From a virus (Duplodnaviria > Heunggongvirae > Uroviricota > Caudoviricetes), in the IMG/VR virus record IMGVR_UViG_2651869694_000009, positions 1-27,070 of that record: a stretch of 27,070 bases of DNA; one strand, given 5' to 3'. Every line of letters starts with the position of its first letter. Position 1 is the stretch's first letter. Positions 227 to 27,070 of the stretch are shown piece after piece. The translations under genes and the position numbers were made by a program. The notes under the pieces were generated by a model. It had not been told where the DNA came from. It searched no databases and saw only the letters and a list, made by a program, of their open reading frames with translations.

Positions 227-1222
227 GTGACCGTGAGAGCACTACTGACCCCTGAAATTGCCCCGCGTATGGGGATCGTATTGTTCAGACCAGGTTCAGA
301 GCTGATGCCCCTGTTTATGCAGGGGCGTGTCCTGCTGGAGCCTGAGCCGGAACGTTATTCATCTTTCGCCAGTGGTGCCGTTCCGGCGGCATCACAACCG
401 CTGGCGGATGATCCTACCGTTCGGGCCGTGTTCCGCAATGAGGCAGTGATCCGTCGTGCTGGTGGCGTGGAATGTCTTGAAAGCTGGTTACTTCGTGAAA
501 AAGGCTGCCAGTGGCCTCATTCCGACTGGCACAGCGAGAACATGACCACAATGCGACACGCTCCGGGTGCAATCCGTCTGTGCTGGCACTGCGATAACCA
601 GCTGCGCGATCAGTTCACGGAACGGCTGGAATCAATGGCAACGGATAACTGTGCCCGCTGGGTGTTGTCTGTTGTGCGTCGGGATCTCGGTTTTGATGAC
701 AGTCACGTTGTGACAATGCCGGAACTGTGCTGGTGGCTGATTCGTAATGACCTGGCGGATGCCTTACCGGAAAGTGCAGCCCGTAAGGCACTGAGATTAC
801 CGAAGCCTGTTGTGCCGTCTGTCACCCGGGAAAGTGACCTTGTGCCTTCGGTTCCTGCCACCAGCATCATCCAGGATAAGGCGAAAAAGGTGCTGGCGCT
901 GAAAGTGGATCCGGAGTCGCCGGAGTCTTTTATGTTACGCCCAAAACGTCGCCGCTGGGTTAATGAAAAGTACACGCGCTGGGTTAAGACACAGCCGTGT
1001 GCATGTTGTGGAAAGCCCGCTGATGATCCCCACCACCTGATAGGTTACGGTCAGGGTGGAATGGGAACAAAAGCCCATGACCTTTTTGTGTTGCCTTTGT
1101 GCAGAAAGCATCACGACGAGCTGCATGCGGATACCGTGGTATTTGAAGAAAAGTATGGCTCTCAGTTGGAGCTGATATTTCGTTTTATCGATCGTGCGCT
1201 GGCAATTGGCGTGCTGGCCTGA
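227..1222 (+). CDS. DUF968-family phage protein (YdfU-like) with a C-terminal Cys/His cluster
   Basis: 331-aa ORF. The C-terminus reads CACCGKPADDPHHLIGYGQGGMGTKAHDLFVLPLCRKHHDELH, an HNH-like metal-binding motif. From memory it matches E. coli Qin-prophage YdfU along its length. Sits directly upstream of Q, as in Qin. The true start may be the GTG at 233 (MRALLTPEIA), which follows GAGGTGA at 224-230. Confidence 0.75.
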   Translation: MTVRALLTPEIAPRMGIVLFRPGSELMPLFMQGRVLLEPEPERYSSFASGAVPAASQPLADDPTVRAVFRNEAVIRRAGGVECLESWLLREKGCQWPHSDWHSENMTTMRHAPGAIRLCWHCDNQLRDQFTERLESMATDNCARWVLSVVRRDLGFDDSHVVTMPELCWWLIRNDLADALPESAARKALRLPKPVVPSVTRESDLVPSVPATSIIQDKAKKVLALKVDPESPESFMLRPKRRRWVNEKYTRWVKTQPCACCGKPADDPHHLIGYGQGGMGTKAHDLFVLPLCRKHHDELHADTVVFEEKYGSQLELIFRFIDRALAIGVLA

Positions 1223-1239
1223 TTTTGTGGAGAAAGTTG

Positions 1240-1617
1240 ATGCGTGATATTCAAATGGTTCTGGATCGTTGGGGAGCATGGGCGGCGAGTGATAGTTCAG
1301 GAGTAGACTATTCTCCTATAGCTGCTGGGTTTAAAGGGCTTCTTCCCTATACAAGCAAAACACGTCAGGCATGTTCAGATAGTGATGCATTAATTATTGA
1401 AGGTTGTCTTGCTCGTCTAAGGCAAAAAAGGCCGGACGAACATTCGCTTCTTGTTGCCCATTACCTATACGGTATCTCTAAAAGAAAGCTCGCCAAGGCT
1501 CGTAAAAAGGATGAGAAACTAATACGCATTGAGATACAGATGGCTGAGGGGTTTATTGATGGCTGCCTATCGATGCTGGAAATTAGTCTAGAGATGGACC
1601 CCGAAATTAAAGATTGA
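1240..1617 (+). CDS. Q: Late-gene antitermination protein Q (QuuD / phage-82 Q-like family)
   Basis: Translation MRDIQMVLDRWGAWAA...IAAGFKGL... closely resembles E. coli DLP12 QuuD as I remember it. The ATG at 1240 follows GGAGAAAG. The ORF track starts at an upstream TTG (1225). Confidence 0.85.
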   Translation: MRDIQMVLDRWGAWAASDSSGVDYSPIAAGFKGLLPYTSKTRQACSDSDALIIEGCLARLRQKRPDEHSLLVAHYLYGISKRKLAKARKKDEKLIRIEIQMAEGFIDGCLSMLEISLEMDPEIKD

Positions 1618-1622
1618 TTATT

Positions 1623-1648
1623 GAAGCCCGATTACTCGGGCTTTTGTT
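1623..1648 (+). terminator. Intrinsic terminator immediately after Q
   Basis: Hairpin AGCCCG (1625-1630) / CGGGCT (1637-1642) with a 6-nt loop, followed by TTTTGTT. It overlaps the stop codon of the convergent minus-strand gene. Confidence 0.6.
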
Positions 1649-2651
1649 CCACATCTCGAACATAGAGAATTACTGCTGACTTAATGTCACCATCGACGTG
1701 TTTTGCGTTAATGCTCAAATGTACAGGCTTTCTTTCCCACTCAGCTCGCTGCAATGCTTCTTTGTTTCCGGATTCATCAAGGAAAACATCCTGAACTACG
1801 CAGGTTAGACGTTGGTCGGTATCTACGCGTCGGACCTTAACTTTGAAACTCTCTGGGTCAGTATTATTGACTTCTTCAATTCGGTAAATACCATCAATCC
1901 TCATTTCTGATGAACGTCTACGAGCATTCGTAACCAACTCTTTCGCCATTTCAGAATCAATAGTAACGCCATCAATTTGAGCGTTATCTGAACGCACAAA
2001 GGATTTGACCATTTGGGTTTTAGCGTCATACGACATACGGTCCATGTTATCGAGAAGTGGTTTTTCCGCAATCATTTCTGAAATAACCCGCAGGCGTTTA
2101 GTTTCTTGCTCGCTCATGATCTGCATAGTCCGGAGATGTTCTTTCTCTCCATCCTTAGCAATTTCTGCAAGGCGAATATCTTTACGGTTGTCCAAGAACC
2201 GTTTAAATACTGTTACTCCGCCCCAGATGACTGCTGCGCCGAGAACAGTAAACATGATCTCAGTTGCGTTCATTTTACCAACAAGTTCCTGTGTGAGTTT
2301 GGTTAAAAAGCCATCAATGTTGATTTCTACTATTGAAGAACCCTGTTCTACCGTAACTTCTATTTCTAGGGCATCAAGTTCTTCTTTGGTCAGTTTGCGG
2401 ACGTCAGGGACACCGTACTTGGCAAGGGCATATGATTTGTTGATTTGAGCTTGCATTTCAACAAATCCCTTCATAACTGAAGGTGTTAGCGATCTGTTGA
2501 ATTTTTCACCGGTTAATCTGATGGTAAGGTTTGGCCATCCGTTGAAACTTAAACTGTCAGGTAAACCATAACCATCAAGATAGCTTTCAAGCAAATCGAA
2601 GGCTTGCTGCTCAGATTCAATGTCTACATGAATCTCATCAAACTTATCCAA
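1632..2651 (-). CDS. Hypothetical single-pass membrane protein (339 aa), moron gene; candidate superinfection-exclusion or abortive-infection protein
   Basis: Long ORF in AT-rich DNA (about 33% G+C in the 60-nt lines I hand-counted). One hydrophobic segment IMFTVLGAAVIWGGVTVF at about residues 131-149, followed by KRFLDNRKDIR. The start is TTG at 2651-2649, preceded by GAGGA with a 7-nt spacer. Opposite orientation to the phage backbone. Confidence 0.7.
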   Translation of the reverse strand: MDKFDEIHVDIESEQQAFDLLESYLDGYGLPDSLSFNGWPNLTIRLTGEKFNRSLTPSVMKGFVEMQAQINKSYALAKYGVPDVRKLTKEELDALEIEVTVEQGSSIVEINIDGFLTKLTQELVGKMNATEIMFTVLGAAVIWGGVTVFKRFLDNRKDIRLAEIAKDGEKEHLRTMQIMSEQETKRLRVISEMIAEKPLLDNMDRMSYDAKTQMVKSFVRSDNAQIDGVTIDSEMAKELVTNARRRSSEMRIDGIYRIEEVNNTDPESFKVKVRRVDTDQRLTCVVQDVFLDESGNKEALQRAEWERKPVHLSINAKHVDGDIKSAVILYVRDVEQKPE

Positions 2652-2825
2652 AAATATGTCCTCATTCTAAGCCAACTGTCACCGTGAGGTTTGGCAACGC
2701 CTGCTTTATTTTTCGTTTTAAGCTGTGTGGCAAAAAAATAATGGAAAAACAGATAAAAATCACTAACGCGGTCCGCATTTTCTAGATTACTGTGTTAAGA
2801 GTGGTTACTTCGCCACACAACTTAA

Positions 2826-2848
2826 ACCCGCCGCTGAGCGGTTTTTTT
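2826..2848 (+). terminator. Weak candidate intrinsic terminator or attenuator
   Basis: Short GC stem CCGC (2831-2834) / GCGG (2838-2841) with a 3-nt loop, then a run of seven T (2842-2848). The stem is short, so this is tentative. Confidence 0.35.
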
Positions 2849-2946
2849 GTACCTGTAAACTTGGTGCAGCACAGTAAACACGCTGGTGGTCGTGAATACT
2901 GACTTTTTATCTTGCTGGCTTTTTAGACAAGAGTTATTGGTATGTC

Positions 2947-3174
2947 ATGTTAACCAGAAGGGAAAAAGACATGCTAAAACAGCAAGATATGACAGAAACC
3001 GCCGCCGCAGTCCTTCATTTCTTACCTGCTGACAAGTGGGTAACGCCACGCATGATGACGAGAACTACCGGAGTAAGCGAAGCCCGGTGCCAGTTAATAC
3101 TGACTCAGTTAGTTCTGGCGGGTCTGGCGAAGGATAACGGCGGGTACGGGAATAAATTCAGACGCTGCCAGTAA
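2947..3174 (+). CDS. Small winged-helix DNA-binding protein (PapI/FaeA-like pattern), putative regulator
   Basis: 75-aa ORF; the real start may be an internal Met. The segment AVLHFLPADKWVTPRMMTRTTGVSEARCQLILTQLVLAGLAKDNGG has the helix-turn-helix plus wing pattern of PapI-type regulators. Assignment is by pattern only. Confidence 0.4.
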   Translation: MLTRREKDMLKQQDMTETAAAVLHFLPADKWVTPRMMTRTTGVSEARCQLILTQLVLAGLAKDNGGYGNKFRRCQ

Positions 3175-3324: not shown

Positions 3325-4377
3325 ATGAAAAATACTGTAAAAATAAACAGTGTTGATTTAATCAACGCTGATTGCCTGCATTTTATTCAGTCCCTGCCTG
3401 ATGATTCCATTGACCTGATTGTTACCGATCCGCCTTACTTCAAAGTGAAACCTAACGGTTGGGACAATCAGTGGAAAGGGGACGAAGATTACCTTAAGTG
3501 GCTGGACCACTGTCTGGCCCAGTTCTGGCGGGTGTTAAAACCTGCCGGAAGCCTTTACCTGTTCTGTGGGCATCGCCTGGCATCTGATATTGAGATCATG
3601 ATGCGTGAACGTTTCAACGTGCTTAACCATATCATCTGGGCGAAGCCGTCCGGACGTTGGAATGGGTGTAATAAAGAAAGTCTGCGCGCATATTTTCCTG
3701 CCACAGAGCGCGTTCTGTTTGCTGAACATTACCAGGGGCCATATCGCGGCAAAAGTGACGACTATGCGGCAAAAGAAAGGGAACTCAAACAGCACATAAT
3801 GGCACCGCTGATATCGTATTTCAGGGATGCTCGTGCCGAACTGGGTATAACGGCAAAACAAATTGCCGAAGCCACAGGTAAGAAAAATATGGTTTCCCAC
3901 TGGTTTGGTGCCAGTCAGTGGCAGTTGCCGAATGAGGCTGACTATCGGAAGTTACAGGCACTGTTTTCCCGTATAGCGGCAGAGAAGTTTCAGGAACAAC
4001 AACTGGAACAACCACACCACCAGCTGGTGGCATCTTATGATTCACTGAATCGCAAATATTCTGAATTGCTGGATGAGTTTAAATCTCTCCGGCGCTATTT
4101 CTCCGTATCAGTCTCCGTGCCTTATACCGATGTCTGGACGCATAAGCCCGTTCAGTTCTACCCGGGTAAACATCCGTGCGAGAAACCGGCGGATATGCTC
4201 CGGCAAATAATCAATGCCAGTAGTCGACCTGGTGATCTGGTTGCTGATTTCTTTATGGGATCCGGTTCCACAATAAAAGCAGCAATGGCGCTGGGGCGTC
4301 GGGCGTTAGGTGTTGAACTTGAGTCAGAGCGGTTTAATCAGACGGTGAAAGAGGTAAGTGAACTGGTGGGGAAATAA
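3325..4377 (+). CDS. Orphan DNA methyltransferase, beta-class (N6-adenine or N4-cytosine), PF01555-like
   Basis: Catalytic motif IV DPPY near the N-terminus (LIVTDPPYF) and AdoMet-binding motif I near the C-terminus (DFFMGSGST). That order defines beta-class amino-methyltransferases. No restriction endonuclease partner is visible. Confidence 0.85.
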   Translation: MKNTVKINSVDLINADCLHFIQSLPDDSIDLIVTDPPYFKVKPNGWDNQWKGDEDYLKWLDHCLAQFWRVLKPAGSLYLFCGHRLASDIEIMMRERFNVLNHIIWAKPSGRWNGCNKESLRAYFPATERVLFAEHYQGPYRGKSDDYAAKERELKQHIMAPLISYFRDARAELGITAKQIAEATGKKNMVSHWFGASQWQLPNEADYRKLQALFSRIAAEKFQEQQLEQPHHQLVASYDSLNRKYSELLDEFKSLRRYFSVSVSVPYTDVWTHKPVQFYPGKHPCEKPADMLRQIINASSRPGDLVADFFMGSGSTIKAAMALGRRALGVELESERFNQTVKEVSELVGK

Positions 4378-5260: not shown

Positions 5261-5636
5261 GCTGGTTATCGCTGCTTTCTTCGTTACTGTCATTGGTTCT
5301 TTCATCTGGTCAGCCAACCACTACTACAGCAAATATCAGTACGAAAAGAAACGTGCTGATGAGGCTGAACGAAATGCTGGATCAGCAACAGCCATTACCA
5401 ATAACGTCCTGCAATCACTGCAAATCGTCAATACAGTACTGGAGGCTAACCAGCATGCAAAACAGCAGATCGCACTGGAGTCACAGAGAACCCAGGAAGA
5501 TATCAAAATGGCTGTTGCGGATGATGATTGTGCTTCACGTGCTGTGCCTGCTGCCGCTGCTGACCGGTTGCGGAAGTACGCGGACAGTTTACGTGAGCGT
5601 TCCGGTGGCACCACTGCCACCCAGCCTGACTTCTGA
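5244..5636 (+). CDS. Rz: Spanin, inner-membrane subunit (Rz-like)
   Basis: Directly after R. N-terminal membrane anchor LVIAAFFVTVIGSFIW followed by a charged, probably coiled-coil periplasmic region. Confidence 0.8.
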   Translation: MKLSYKLVIAAFFVTVIGSFIWSANHYYSKYQYEKKRADEAERNAGSATAITNNVLQSLQIVNTVLEANQHAKQQIALESQRTQEDIKMAVADDDCASRAVPAAAADRLRKYADSLRERSGGTTATQPDF

Positions 5637-5778
5637 TACTCCTGTACCGTTTATACCTAATCCGCTGACGTATGGTGCCAGTCTGGAGCTGAATGTGAGT
5701 CTGTTGTCTGCGCTGGCTAACTGCAATCGGGATAAAGCTGATATTCGTAAAATAGATGCAGAGAGAACTAACCATTAA
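5521..5778 (+). CDS. Rz1: Spanin, outer-membrane lipoprotein subunit (Rz1-like), overlapped arrangement
   Basis: In the +1 frame inside Rz. Tandem ATG at 5521/5524. Lipoprotein signal MMIVLHVLCLLPLLTGC with lipobox L-T-G-C and a Pro-rich mature part. Extends past the Rz stop. Confidence 0.75.
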   Translation: MMIVLHVLCLLPLLTGCGSTRTVYVSVPVAPLPPSLTSDTPVPFIPNPLTYGASLELNVSLLSALANCNRDKADIRKIDAERTNH

Positions 5779-5799
5779 GCAATAAAATTGTCAAATTAA

Positions 5800-6426
5800 T
5801 CAGTTGTCAAATGAATATACGTTAAAGGTATATGTCGACATAATTTCACCAAGTACCTCAATACATACACTTTTTTTATGAAAATTACTGGGAAATGAAC
5901 TTAGCTCCTCAAGACATTGCACATAAGTGCTGATATCACTTGCATCACGTTCAAGGAATTTCACTTGACCAAAAGAAGGAGTTTTAATCTTGGTTCTTTG
6001 CTGGATTATATGGATAAAGTGTGTAGTTGGTGAAACTATTACTCTTGAAATATCGGAAATGATGTCTTCTTGAACTTGCCGATAAAGTAAATCCTTTGGG
6101 TAATGGTGTTTTATCTCGATGGTTGCAACATTGCCATTATGTTCAGACGTTAATATCGACTGGTTATAAAGTGATATGTCAACAGCGCCGATACCGAGTT
6201 TTGGATGCTCACTTAAAGCAGTTAGTGTGCTGATTTGATTGAGTATAACAACTAACTCATCACGTATTTGTGTTTCATGTTTGCGATTGTAGAAGTAGCC
6301 ATTCAGTTCATTTAACTTTTTATGCATCCTATCGTGACTAATTGCTTCGATCAGTAAATCCTGAATCATACTTTTCTCTAGGTAATCCGAACGGTTGTAA
6401 GTGACAGTATTGTGCTGGCATGTCAT
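5800..6426 (-). CDS. Hypothetical protein (208 aa), downstream gene of an AT-rich moron operon; possible PD-(D/E)xK-type nuclease
   Basis: Long ORF in DNA of about 32-37% G+C, where stop codons are frequent and long chance ORFs are unlikely. Contains GIGAVDISLY ... VATIEIKHH (D83, E104, K106), compatible with a PD-(D/E)xK core. Start uncertain because no clear SD precedes ATG 6426. Confidence 0.6.
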   Translation of the reverse strand: MTCQHNTVTYNRSDYLEKSMIQDLLIEAISHDRMHKKLNELNGYFYNRKHETQIRDELVVILNQISTLTALSEHPKLGIGAVDISLYNQSILTSEHNGNVATIEIKHHYPKDLLYRQVQEDIISDISRVIVSPTTHFIHIIQQRTKIKTPSFGQVKFLERDASDISTYVQCLEELSSFPSNFHKKSVCIEVLGEIMSTYTFNVYSFDN

Positions 6427-6469
6427 TAATATGTAAAGGTATTGTGAATGCCAGAAAGATAACGAAGTA

Positions 6470-6805
6470 TCATCGATAGAAAAACTTTACAGCCCACTCG
6501 TAAACAGCTTTGTAAATCGGTTCATGGTAAATACTATCGATACTATTCAGATGTGCGATCATCGCCTCCACAGTTGTAGTGGTTGTTTCTAATATTTCGA
6601 TTATTGCAGGGCGGTCATCATCTTCATCGAAGTATTCGAACAGCAGTACAGGTTTACCATGCAATTCAGCATCTGAGACTCTAAGGTTACAACTACCGCT
6701 CAACTCAAAGTGAATTTTGTAATTACCTTCTACAGAATGGCCTACGGGGAAAAAGTATAGGGTGTCATCTTTGTTCAAAAGCCATTCCCATTCATAACTA
6801 TTCAT
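6470..6805 (-). CDS. Hypothetical small acidic protein (about 111 aa), upstream gene of the AT-rich moron operon
   Basis: ORF on the same strand, 43 bp upstream of the 208-aa gene. The preferred start is the second ATG (6805), preceded by AGGAG with a 7-nt spacer; the ORF track starts at 6823. Acidic patch FEYFDEDDDRP and a TTTT run. Confidence 0.6.
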   Translation of the reverse strand: MNSYEWEWLLNKDDTLYFFPVGHSVEGNYKIHFELSGSCNLRVSDAELHGKPVLLFEYFDEDDDRPAIIEILETTTTTVEAMIAHLNSIDSIYHEPIYKAVYEWAVKFFYR

Positions 6806-6955
6806 TTGTGAACTCCTGTTCATTGAGTTTCAACAACTATCAACTACATCCAGCGAAGCATAAAAGATCGTTTATGGCAAAACCGGAATGGAGTGCGATT
6901 CGATTCTGAGAAGGGTGCCACGTATCGTACGCGAACCATCCAAGAGGATTATGCA

Positions 6956-24281: not shown

Positions 24282-25064
24282 ATGCATCGTATAGACACGA
24301 AAACCGCGCAGAAGGATAAGTTCGGCGCGGGTAAGAACGGTTTTACCCGTGGTAACCCCCAGACCGGCACACCTGCCACCGATCTGGATGATGACTACTT
24401 TGACATGTTGCAGGAAGAACTCTGCAGCGTGGTGGAGGCATCCGGTGCCAGCCTGGAGAAGGGGCGGCATGACCAGCTGCTTACCGCGCTTCGTGCGCTG
24501 CTGTTAAGCCGCAAGAATCCGTTTGGCGATATCAAATCGGATGGCACGGTGAAAAGGGCTCTCGAAAACCTTGGTTTGGGAGAAGGTTCGGCATTACCCG
24601 TTGGTGTGCCTGTTCCGTGGCCTTCCGCCACTCCGCCAACAGGCTGGCTGAAATGCAACGGTGCCGCTTTTTCTGCTGAAGAATACCCGGAACTGGCAAA
24701 GGCTTATCCGACAAATAAATTGCCTGATTTACGTGGTGAGTTTATTCGTGGCTGGGATGACGGGCGTGGAGTGGATAACGGAAGGGGATTATTAACGCTT
24801 CAGGACGGTGCGATTGTCAGTCATAACCACTATTGGGGAATCTGGACTTCACGAACTAACGACCAGACTCTGGAAAGTTTTACAGGCACCACGATTTTAA
24901 AACAAATCACGCCCCTGTCTCCAGCCATTGACTTCGATAATTACCCAATTCCCAACCCGGCTATTACAGAGGGTGGTGTTGTTGCGGCAACGACTAAACC
25001 TGCAGGTGCGAATGAAACACGCCCACGAAATGTCGCTTTTAACTATATTGTGAGGGCTGCATAA
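24282..25064 (+). CDS. Tail fibre protein: constant N-terminal part fused to the variable C-terminal domain in the current orientation
   Basis: 260 aa. Conserved fibre N-terminus (MHRIDTKTA...[17 protein letters not shown]) and fibre-type C-terminal ending [11 protein letters not shown]. Contains the left crossover site at 24559-24584. Confidence 0.85.
24559..24584. repeat. Left crossover site of the invertible segment (pix/gix/hix-type, 12-2-12 bp)
   Basis: CTCTCGAAAACC TT GGTTTGGGAGAA. Positions 24571-24584 are a perfect inverted repeat of 26439-26452. The half-sites resemble Hin/Gin recombination sites. Confidence 0.75.
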
Positions 25065-25666
25065 TGAATAACGCAGAATTAAACAGTGAATTAATTGCCA
25101 CTATGGCAGGAGAAATTACTGTTTATAACTTTGACGTCATGAGTCGGGAGTATATTTCAGCTTCAACTGAATATCTTGCTGTTGGTGTCGGCATTCCGGC
25201 ATATTCCTGTTTAGATGCTCCAGGCACCTACAAAGCTGGTTATGCAATCTGCCGCTCTGCAGATTTTAACTCATGGGAATATGTACCAGACCATCGCGGT
25301 GAAATCGTCTATAACACCGAAACGGGAGACGCCAAAGAAATCACAACTCCGGGTGATTACCCCGAAAAAACAACCACTATCGCCCCGTTAACGCCATACG
25401 ATAAATGGGATGGTGAGAAATGGGTAACGGATACTGAGACACAGCATAGCGCCGCAGTAGACGCGGCAGAAGCACAGCGTCAGTCACTGATTGATACTGC
25501 AATGGCTTCCATCAGTCTGATTCAACTGAAATTGCAGGCCGGGCGGAAGCTGACGCAGGCAGAAACCACCCGACTTAACGCTGTGCTGGATTACATTGAC
25601 GCGGTGACGGCAACAGATACCAGCACCGCGCCGGATGTCATCTGGCCTGAACTGCCGGAGGCGTAG
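25064..25666 (+). CDS. Tail fibre assembly protein (Tfa, current-orientation partner)
   Basis: 200 aa. Its C-terminus (LDYIDAVTATDTSTAPDVIWPELPEA) resembles the conserved end of the convergent minus-strand paralogue. Confidence 0.8.
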   Translation: MNNAELNSELIATMAGEITVYNFDVMSREYISASTEYLAVGVGIPAYSCLDAPGTYKAGYAICRSADFNSWEYVPDHRGEIVYNTETGDAKEITTPGDYPEKTTTIAPLTPYDKWDGEKWVTDTETQHSAAVDAAEAQRQSLIDTAMASISLIQLKLQAGRKLTQAETTRLNAVLDYIDAVTATDTSTAPDVIWPELPEA

Positions 25667-26078
25667 GCCATTCAATATCTGGCGCACCGGAAGTATCGAC
25701 CAGTTCCAGTGCGTCCAGGTAATCCAGCCACAAATTATATTGCGCCAGTTCGTCACCTTTCAGACGACCAATAGCCGCTTTACCAGGCCATTGTTTACTG
25801 TTCATATAAACGTTGGCCTGATTAATCAATTGCTGCTTCTCCAATTCGGCTGCAGCAATTTGTTCCTCATGTGTTGGTGGTGGAATTTCGGACCATGCAG
25901 GAAAACCATTTTCTCCAGCGATACGGATTTTTCCTTTCGGCGGTAATCCGGAAAACTCAATATACACTTGCTCATCAACTTCAACAGCATCATCTGGCCA
26001 TGAGTCAGCTTGAGTGTAATCCTCTTTCATCTCCAGCGGATAGAAAGAGTTTGTAGTCGCGGAATATATGTAATTCAT
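25638..26078 (-). CDS. Alternative tail fibre assembly protein (partner of the alternative fibre C-terminus)
   Basis: 146 aa, convergent with the + strand Tfa. C-terminus LWLDYLDALELVDTSGAPDIEWPTPPA matches the Tfa family pattern. Confidence 0.8.
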   Translation of the reverse strand: MNYIYSATTNSFYPLEMKEDYTQADSWPDDAVEVDEQVYIEFSGLPPKGKIRIAGENGFPAWSEIPPPTHEEQIAAAELEKQQLINQANVYMNSKQWPGKAAIGRLKGDELAQYNLWLDYLDALELVDTSGAPDIEWPTPPAVQAR

Positions 26079-26099
26079 TTTTCACTCCATATAGCTAAA

Positions 26100-26447
26100 T
26101 TAACAGCCTAACGCTAAAAATGAAGCGCCGAGGCCAGGAGTACTGGCTCTGGATATAAATTTAACCGGGTCGGGACTAAAACCTGCACAGGCAATATAAC
26201 CAACAGCCCCGCTATCTGGTGTGTAGTCTTGTGAGACCAAAACACGCAGACATCTGTTTGGAAATGCAATCGGGAAATGGGTTACTACATCCTGTGCAAT
26301 GCCTGGTGCGCCGATTGAGCCCCACTGAAGAATAAAACCTGATGGTAATTTTTGATATCCAGTACCTGAAACAGAAAGCGTGAAGCTACCCATATCAGGT
26401 ATCTGATTCGCCCCTGTCCCTACATTCCTTTTAGCCGCTTCTCCCAA
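26100..26447 (-). CDS. Alternative tail fibre C-terminal domain, silent in the current orientation
   Basis: Open frame with no start codon of its own; the listed M is TTG coding Leu. Its first codons lie in the right crossover site and encode LGE, the same junction residues as the left site in the fibre gene. Confidence 0.7.
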
Positions 26448-26464
26448 ACCAACCTTTTAGAAAA
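26439..26464. repeat. Right crossover site of the invertible segment
   Basis: TTCTCCCAAACC AA CCTTTTAGAAAA, about 55 bp upstream of the invertase gene. Confidence 0.75.
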
Positions 26465-26518
26465 TGCAGTTATTCGGCTCAGATGGCATGATCCCGGATT
26501 TTTACAGGGTTATTTCTC

Positions 26519-27070
26519 ATGCTCATCGGCTATGTACGCGTGTCAACAAATGACCAGAACACTGCATTGCAACGAAACGCGCTGGAGTGCGCAGGATGTG
26601 AACTGATATTCGAGGATAAGATCAGCGGCAGAACGTCTGACAGGCCGGGCTTGAAGAAAGTACTCAGGACTCTGTCTGAAGGCGATACGCTGGTGGTCTG
26701 GAAACTGGATCGACTCGGTCGCAGCATGCGGCATCTTGTCGTTTTGGTGGAGGAGCTTCGGGAAAAGGGTATTAACTTTCGCAGCCTGACCGACAGCATA
26801 GATACGTCTTCACCAATGGGACGCTTTTTCTTCCATGTCATGGGCGCACTTGCAGAAATGGAAAGGGAGCTGATAGTCGAACGTACCAGGGCGGGATTGG
26901 CTGCGGCTCGTGAAGAAGGGCGAATAGGTGGGCGTCGATCAAAGCTAACTGATGAACAGTGGGCGCAGGCAGGCAGGTTGATTGCAGCAGGTGAATCACG
27001 ACAGCGTGTGGCATTAATTTACGATGTTGGGATATCGACGCTATATAAAAAATTTCCGGCAACCAGGTAA
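26519..27070 (+). CDS. pin: Site-specific DNA invertase (serine recombinase, Pin/Gin/Hin family)
   Basis: MLIGYVRVSTNDQNTALQRNAL... with the catalytic Ser in the VRVST motif and a C-terminal HTH. Very similar to E. coli e14 Pin as I remember it. Stop codon at the last three bases of the window. Confidence 0.92.
   Translation: MLIGYVRVSTNDQNTALQRNALECAGCELIFEDKISGRTSDRPGLKKVLRTLSEGDTLVVWKLDRLGRSMRHLVVLVEELREKGINFRSLTDSIDTSSPMGRFFFHVMGALAEMERELIVERTRAGLAAAREEGRIGGRRSKLTDEQWAQAGRLIAAGESRQRVALIYDVGISTLYKKFPATR

Follow-up and report, generated by a model that had tools for sequence, protein, structure and literature searches.

What do two small genes on the opposite strand of a prophage late operon contribute, and do they belong together? 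The question is raised by a 27,070-nucleotide stretch of DNA from a tailed phage (IMG/VR record IMGVR_UViG_2651869694_000009, positions 1 to 27,070; referred to here as the window), in which two minus-strand open reading frames (ORFs) stand between the gene for an Rz1-like spanin and the gene for an HNH endonuclease. The ORF at 5800..6426 (at most 208 amino acids, aa) is called gene B and the ORF at 6470..6823 (at most 117 aa) gene A. An earlier note on this DNA had taken the pair for an undescribed two-gene defence or toxin module. Our analysis led to a different answer, which we hold with slightly more confidence than doubt: A and B are two independent morons stacked in a recombination hotspot, and B is a solitary nuclease that would be expressed in the lysogen and act against incoming DNA.

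Both ORFs are real genes, as the note had held. Homologues of A and of B are each found in several Enterobacterales genera, and both genes are under purifying selection, with dN/dS values of 0.08-0.15 for B and 0.16 for A. The gene starts were set from PHROG profiles, RefSeq gene calls and alignments of homologues, which place B at 6369 and A at 6805. The length of 111 aa given for A stands, but B is likely to have 189 aa, 208 aa being the maximal ORF. Because the real starts are 6369 and 6805, the intergenic gap is 100 bp; the 43 bp reported before applies to the maximal ORFs only. The contrast in base composition was also partly right. The G+C content is 37.4% over 5779-6955 (39.3% for A and 35.3% for B) and 52.7% for the window, but the 65% quoted for the structural genes is overstated, as they measure 52-61%.

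Whether A and B form a unit was assessed in IMG/VR viral contigs, in which the partner was sought within 3 kb of each gene. Co-occurrence across lineages, the test applied for a type II toxin-antitoxin system, was not found: loci with both genes were always at least 94% identical to the window, A was absent from 24 of the 24 divergent B loci (50-71% identity), and B was absent from nine of the nine divergent A loci (51-74% identity). In a survey of 5,426 complete E. coli genomes, A and B were present in 79-80 genomes each with 75 intact pairs, and this linkage is one near-clonal cassette. A stands alone in at least six different lambdoid backgrounds (loci L011-L018), always divergent from the small terminase gene (terS). 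B without A was found at loci L002-L005, L029-L034 and L056. In Yersinia, Citrobacter and Pectobacterium, B occupies the lysis-to-terminase slot with no upstream partner, and in the same slot it lies behind a gene for a 103-aa secreted-type protein in Proteus and behind a gene for a 75-aa acidic protein in Enterobacter. The upstream genes of B in other lineages, including those beside its distant Bacteroidota relatives, showed no similarity to one another or to A. A conserved partner for B among the small upstream genes of six lineages was rejected, as these genes are mutually unrelated and several loci have none. Even in the phage type of the window, two loci (L056 and L057) keep a 96%-identical B and have A swapped for an unrelated membrane-protein gene. 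The claim of a two-gene operon, whether toxin-antitoxin or two-component defence, had to be given up, since A and B are joined only in the one E. coli cassette, each gene has its own upstream DNA, and B elsewhere is alone or has unrelated neighbours.

Insertions of the IS3 family split B after codon 38 and leave A intact in several independent records (L027 3460-4930; L028 1274-2715; L087 3115-4320). In strain CD45, the prophage to the left of the IS3-interrupted B is deleted up to icd. Another arrangement was seen in Empedobacter (L126 4652-5588; L127 3380-4316), where a B-family gene and a gene for a 114-aa basic protein, 4 bp upstream, are paired in two genomic contexts, both adjoining transposases. 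The 114-aa protein has a C-terminal hydrophobic segment. Unlike in Enterobacterales, this pair may be a true two-gene mobile unit.

Then, how did A and B come to stand side by side? Comparison of the Rz1-HNH interval across related prophages, proposed in the earlier note as a check, identified a variable hotspot. The whole interval is present in 75 of the 5,426 complete E. coli genomes, and one or both flanks in many more. Prophages with the same flanks have either an empty slot, with 26 bp from Rz1 to HNH (L006), or one filled by other, unrelated cargos, at least five in all and lying on either strand: a plus-strand gene for a 184-aa protein (L007), a GrlR-like 106-aa gene (L008, 934-1254), minus-strand genes of 124 aa (L009) and 83 aa (L010), and a 151-aa membrane-protein gene that replaces A beside B (L056). 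Except for the GrlR-like protein, these alternative cargos matched nothing in Pfam or PADLOC. In attaching-effacing E. coli, GrlR regulates type III secretion; a GrlR-family gene also adjoins an A-only locus in Escherichia sp. ESNIH1 (L011 5416-5736). Against the empty-slot and other-cargo prophages the breakpoints are sharp: the left one falls at about 5745-5765 and the right one exactly at 6955/6956, position 6955 being the base that precedes the HNH start codon. The variable segment, from about 5750 at the 3' end of Rz1 to exactly 6955, nearly coincides with the interval of 5779-6955 marked before. We read the interval as the cargo-carrying part of a recombination hotspot, equivalent to the bor position of lambda, and the opposite-strand placement in a bor-like slot between the lysis and the packaging genes had been correctly recognized.

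Recombination scars inside the interval indicate how the two genes were assembled. Compared at the DNA level with the A-only loci, the window is homologous over A and about 90 bp upstream (6472-6897); compared with the B-only loci, it is homologous over the coding sequence of B only. Upstream of A, conservation is highest in a block (alignment A4) whose reverse complement is the beginning of a Terminase_2-type terS. On the plus strand, window positions 6874-6909 read MAKPEWSAIRF followed by a stop codon, where real TerS proteins have MAKPDWG.LQ... and MKKPDWEAIK.... The TerS of the window phage belongs to the P27 family and is unrelated to this 11-codon stub, which shows that A came in from a different phage lineage and brought the first codons of the adjoining divergent gene with it. 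A stub of the same kind (MTKPDWSVLQHRL) is located upstream of B in Enterobacter, with an extra small gene inserted between B and the resident terS. Horizontal acquisition, which had been proposed for both genes, is supported.

The upstream DNA of B follows a related pattern. At three loci (L003, L030 and L034), GTATAATCC comes immediately after the terS start codon or its stub and supplies a perfect -10 hexamer about 35 nt before the ATG of B (L030 3911-4000; L003 4143-4182; L034 3963-4000). The TTTACA-17-CACAAT sequence at 6437-6409 of the window aligns with the TATAAT element upstream of B at these loci, and the same stretch of about 65 nt with the promoter-like site is retained upstream of B in L056, where A is swapped out. 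These alignments suggest that divergent promoters of terS-proximal morons may be built into the beginning of terS itself and that the 5' ends of terS may serve as the recombination joint in cassette stacking. We infer that A and B are self-contained cassettes located beside terS and stacked by recombination, for which the joints would be the conserved 5' end of terS and, on the opposite side, the end of the spanin genes.

What kind of protein, then, does B encode? Neither A nor B belongs to a curated family or a known defence model, as had been suspected: scans with Pfam, NCBIfam and PADLOC gave no match for either, and the only PHROG matches are to families of "unknown function". The B family is rare, with 31 clusters in an index of 5.8 billion proteins. 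A profile search with B gave 49 matches (E<=0.001) among 1.84 billion representatives, and a broader profile gave about 120, mostly from Bacteroidota and metagenomes. The strongest evidence on the nature of B comes from conservation: in a 39-member alignment whose most distant sequences share about 20% identity, no columns are invariant except K30, E32, D64, E85 and K87. These residues include a glutamate in helix 1 and the D...E-x-K catalytic signature, which is located on predicted strands 2 and 3. The AlphaFold2 model of B, which is confident, consists of a helix, three strands, a helix and a strand, with a central mixed sheet as in the PD-(D/E)xK core fold, and the positions of the invariant residues fit the predicted strands. 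No extra domain is seen in the 189-aa model. Single distant members of the family weakly match Pfam HSDR_N, PDDEXK_4, PADLOC SduA and REase_II, all of which are PD-(D/E)xK families, and the closest structural neighbours of the model are type II restriction enzymes. Profile searches of B (A1 and A3) against PDB sequences returned nothing significant, and Foldseek of the model against PDB and BFVD returned no match at E<=0.001. Taken together, B is probably an active PD-(D/E)xK nuclease, with E32, D64, E85 and K87 as the predicted catalytic residues. The description of the pair as undescribed was half right, as B is assignable to this superfamily and A is without any family match. With B, this very large and familiar superfamily gains a divergent family, and the genomic niche is likewise of a well-known kind.

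B is present in about 1.5% of complete E. coli genomes (80 of 5,426) and in several other Enterobacterales. A and B are annotated as hypothetical everywhere, and no mention of the RefSeq accessions or PHROG identifiers of A and B was found in the open-access PMC and bioRxiv literature. The distant relatives of B are solitary genes, some in defence-like and others in unremarkable surroundings. One in Tenuifilum is near HEPN AbiU2, another is near a WYL protein, and one in Tamlana lies between Kiwa and type I hsdM/hsdS. At the last locus (Tamlana haliotis L019, 4001-7521), the B relative is 82 bp upstream of hsdM and hsdS, with the Kiwa genes (KwaA/KwaB) directly upstream of it and no hsdR visible within the 8.6-kb locus. 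It would be unusual for a nuclease on its own to work with a type I methylase/specificity pair.

Gene A is less revealing. The protein is small (13 kDa) and acidic, with a DEDDD stretch, and its homologues form only 14 clusters, all in Enterobacterales prophages. A profile search with A (A2) against PDB sequences returned nothing significant, and the AlphaFold2 model is weak (pLDDT 60), with five strands followed by two C-terminal helices. What stays constant for A is its location, in direct divergence from the gene that opens the packaging module. That A could be a protein-binding inhibitor in exclusion or counter-defence is a low-confidence guess. A lipoprotein moron of the Bor type was also considered for both genes. 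By reading of the sequences, not by a dedicated signal-peptide predictor, no hydrophobic leader or lipobox was seen in A (which starts MNSYEWEWLLNKDD) or B (which starts MIQDLLIEAISHDR), and in view of the missing signal peptide with a lipobox cysteine this candidate was set aside.

How would B work in a lysogen? In lambda, bor lies on the opposite strand in the late operon and is expressed in the lysogen. By analogy, as B faces against the late operon and is preceded by promoter-like elements, it would be transcribed in the lysogen from its own sigma-70-type promoter; A is likewise placed for lysogen expression. The B protein, probably a homodimer like the small type II enzymes, would act as a Mg2+-dependent DNA endonuclease that cuts incoming phage or other foreign DNA, and would do so independently of a linked methyltransferase and of gene A. 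On induction of its own prophage, B would be silenced by head-on late transcription. An action on foreign DNA is suggested by the kind of protein that B is, its place as a moron, the defence cargo in the adjacent slot between the Q antiterminator and holin genes (the Q-holin slot), and the enrichment of defence genes in prophage hotspots, which are known reservoirs of such genes (PMC9519451). The surroundings are compatible with a defence role: B is on the opposite strand in the late operon, some of its relatives stand beside Kiwa and hsdMS or HEPN AbiU2, and the Q-holin slot of E. coli UMNK88 holds a TIR and caspase pair. We consider a defence role for B plausible.

Several observations weigh against this picture. 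A solitary active endonuclease without a protection mechanism is hard to reconcile with host viability. No known defence gene was found among the other cargos of the Rz1-HNH hotspot, and A and B each matched zero families at E<=1 in the PADLOC v2.0.0 defence models, the catalogues covered reaching to 2023. Several distant relatives of B are in unremarkable contexts, and the recurrent IS3 disruption could mean that B is costly or dispensable. The promoter assignments come from consensus matches and conservation only. A scan for intrinsic terminators found none between A and B, the spacer has no significant structure, and an Rfam scan of 5400-7300 found no RNA family; without a terminator, read-through from A into B is possible in the arrangement of the window, but it is not a conserved feature.

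A broader reading would join these elements. In it, B would found a group of solitary, methyltransferase-independent, restriction-like nucleases with an undescribed principle of self/non-self discrimination, for which host Dam/Dcm methylation or phage-specific DNA modifications or ends would be examples; A would be a small protein that moves together with terS and acts as a new factor of exclusion or counter-defence; and the lambdoid lysis-terS junction would be a largely unexplored reservoir of single-gene immunity, shuffled at the conserved start of terS. The close clade of B is confined to Dam-positive Enterobacterales. We regard this broader reading as doubtful.

Several rival explanations were weighed, two of which assign a partner to B. 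If A and B were a dedicated system, acidic A would neutralize nuclease B as an antitoxin, or the two would act as a two-component defence. In the window the genes are adjacent and co-directional with no terminator between them, they co-occur in nearly all E. coli carriers (75 of about 80 genomes), A has the low pI of 4.56, and IS3 loss of B with A kept is seen while the converse is not seen in complete E. coli genomes. The linkage is nevertheless limited to one near-clonal cassette and is absent from all divergent loci of either gene, L056 and L057 retain B with A replaced, the genes upstream of B elsewhere are unrelated or missing, and the two genes have separate upstream DNA and separate recombination scars, all of which make a dedicated pair very unlikely. 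A partner could also be sought across the lysis cassette, with B as the restriction subunit of a type II restriction-modification (R-M) system whose 350-aa methyltransferase is encoded at 3325-4377. The closest structural neighbours of B are indeed type II restriction enzymes, and the gene for this methyltransferase precedes the holin gene both in the window and in the Citrobacter locus L003. This pairing was rejected as highly improbable: E. coli UMNK88 carries A and B with the TIR and caspase pair in place of the methyltransferase, the methyltransferase is present in 1256 of the 5426 genomes as against 80 for B, in Yersinia and Proteus B has no methyltransferase homologue within 8 kb, and the distant relatives of B have no adjacent type II methyltransferase. 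The toxin-antitoxin and R-M explanations are largely excluded. The methyltransferase itself is an orphan DNA methyltransferase on the plus strand, just upstream of the holin gene, and is 82% identical in a Citrobacter prophage.

Two further explanations need no partner. B could be a selfish, free-standing homing-type endonuclease, expressed from the prophage, that cuts related phages lacking B near the Rz1/terS junction and spreads by repair-mediated co-conversion, so that exclusion of competitors would only be a side effect. Presence/absence polymorphism between conserved genes and sharp boundaries are both observed, terS stubs flank and travel with the cassettes as co-conversion tracts would, and PD-(D/E)xK homing endonucleases such as I-Ssp6803I exist. 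However, gene A, which does not encode a nuclease, has the same terS-stub pattern, and ordinary recombination at the conserved 5' end of terS therefore suffices; the distant relatives of B, moreover, occur in chromosomal, non-phage contexts. We consider homing unlikely. Alternatively, B might serve the DNA metabolism of the phage itself (recombination, repair or junction resolution) or be a non-catalytic DNA-binding protein. An accessory gene that is variably present and opposite to all lytic genes, in a phage that already encodes RusA, does not fit the former, and the strict conservation of the D/E-x-K residues speaks against the latter, which leaves this explanation distinctly unlikely.

The window phage is an e14/SfV-like E. 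coli prophage; its head is of the HK97 type, its small terminase of the P27 family and its tail contractile, and it encodes a Pin-type invertase. Over the region of interest it is identical to a prophage of strain UPEC_U013 (locus L001). The features of the locus are listed in Table 1.

Table 1. Features in and around the Rz1-HNH interval, in window coordinates.
Feature	Position	Strand	Basis
Left flank: Rz1-like o-spanin gene (lysC), end of lysis cassette	5521..5778	+	RefSeq annotation of identical locus L001
Variable cargo segment of Rz1-HNH hotspot, low-GC island	5750..6955	.	Homology breakpoints; G+C 0.374 vs 0.527 in window
Gene B: predicted 189-aa PD-(D/E)xK restriction-endonuclease-like nuclease; PHROG 12494; WP_000613842.1 "hypothetical protein"	5800..6369 (maximal ORF to 6426)	-	
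A-B spacer, 100 bp	6370..6469	-	No terminator-like site; RNA fold z-score -0.45; no Rfam match
Putative promoter-like site for B, TTTACA-17 nt-CACAAT, inside A-B spacer	6409..6437	-	Consensus scan; conservation
Gene A: 111-aa acidic (pI 4.56) cytoplasmic protein; PHROG 14397; WP_001089763.1	6470..6805	-	PHROG match 1e-77 over residues 7-117; AGGAG 8 nt before ATG
Putative conserved leader/promoter region moving with gene A	6806..6897	-	DNA homology to A-only loci 6472-6897, alignment A4
Orphan 5' stub of foreign Terminase_2-type terS (MAKPEWSAIRF*), recombination scar	6874..6909	+	Translation vs real TerS N-termini; top-conserved block of alignment A4
Right flank: HNH endonuclease gene, first of packaging module	6956..7306	+	RefSeq annotation, ORF list
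P27-family terS, after HNH gene	7432-7926		RefSeq annotation

Two other regions of the window drew attention. A second opposite-strand moron, a 339-aa gene at 1632-2651 (-), lies between the Q antiterminator gene and the methyltransferase and holin genes, in a low-GC patch at about 1200-3000 (40-44% G+C), and matches nothing in Pfam or PADLOC. The minus-strand pair of a TIR-domain gene and a caspase-family gene occupies this slot in E. coli UMNK88, which makes the slot a second cargo hotspot with probable defence content. The right end of the window (24282-27070, 44-47% G+C) has the look of an invertible tail-fibre segment, in which a plus-strand gene for a tail-fibre C-terminal part and an assembly gene face an alternative minus-strand set (25638-26447), followed by a Pin/Gin-type serine invertase gene from 26519 to the end of the window.

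Prophage hotspots are a main source of new anti-phage genes in E. coli, and at least seven unrelated cargos, almost all uncharacterized, occur in the Rz1-packaging hotspot of lambdoid phages, the e14/SfV-like ones included. B is a candidate single-gene immunity nuclease with a restriction-endonuclease fold, a defined catalytic tetrad and no methyltransferase, a hypothesis that is cheap to test. Recognition of the independence of A and B averts their mis-annotation as a toxin-antitoxin pair or two-gene system, and the terS stubs record how cassettes get stacked. Should B prove inert or purely selfish, the finding shrinks to ordinary moron turnover.

How does B compare with known systems? The fold predicted for B is that of the small homodimeric type II restriction endonucleases with a PD-(D/E)xK fold (R.SwaI, EcoRV, BglI, NgoMIV and BamHI), but B has no detectable sequence similarity to any solved enzyme and no cognate methyltransferase, and it sits as a lone moron gene in the late operon of a prophage. 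Shedu (SduA, DUF4263) resembles B as a solitary PD-(D/E)xK nuclease with a proposed action on invading DNA without a methyltransferase, and one distant B-family member weakly matches the PADLOC SduA model (E 1e-5). Assignment of B to Shedu was nonetheless rejected, because the window protein has no SduA/DUF4263 match in PADLOC or Pfam. Shedu proteins typically carry a variable N-terminal sensor domain, whereas the 189-aa B is without one. The e14 family carries defence cargo (mcrA and lit), including a type IV nuclease; McrA is an HNH enzyme and is unrelated in sequence to B. TERi of Listeria, Tab and Tai are each a small opposite-strand defence gene in a lytic operon, at a locus with alternative genes in related prophages (10.1101/2025.02.27.640495). 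The likeness of these systems to the window genes is one of architecture only, with no sequence relationship: they act on terminase or assembly and not by nuclease activity, and they have self-immunity genes in the lytic operon, of which none is evident in the window. A parallel in placement is lambda bor, along with other lysogen-expressed morons. The product of bor is an outer-membrane lipoprotein, unlike A and B, which have no signal peptide or lipobox, but bor shares with them the setting of an AT-rich, opposite-strand accessory gene between Rz/Rz1 and the packaging genes, with predicted expression in the lysogen.

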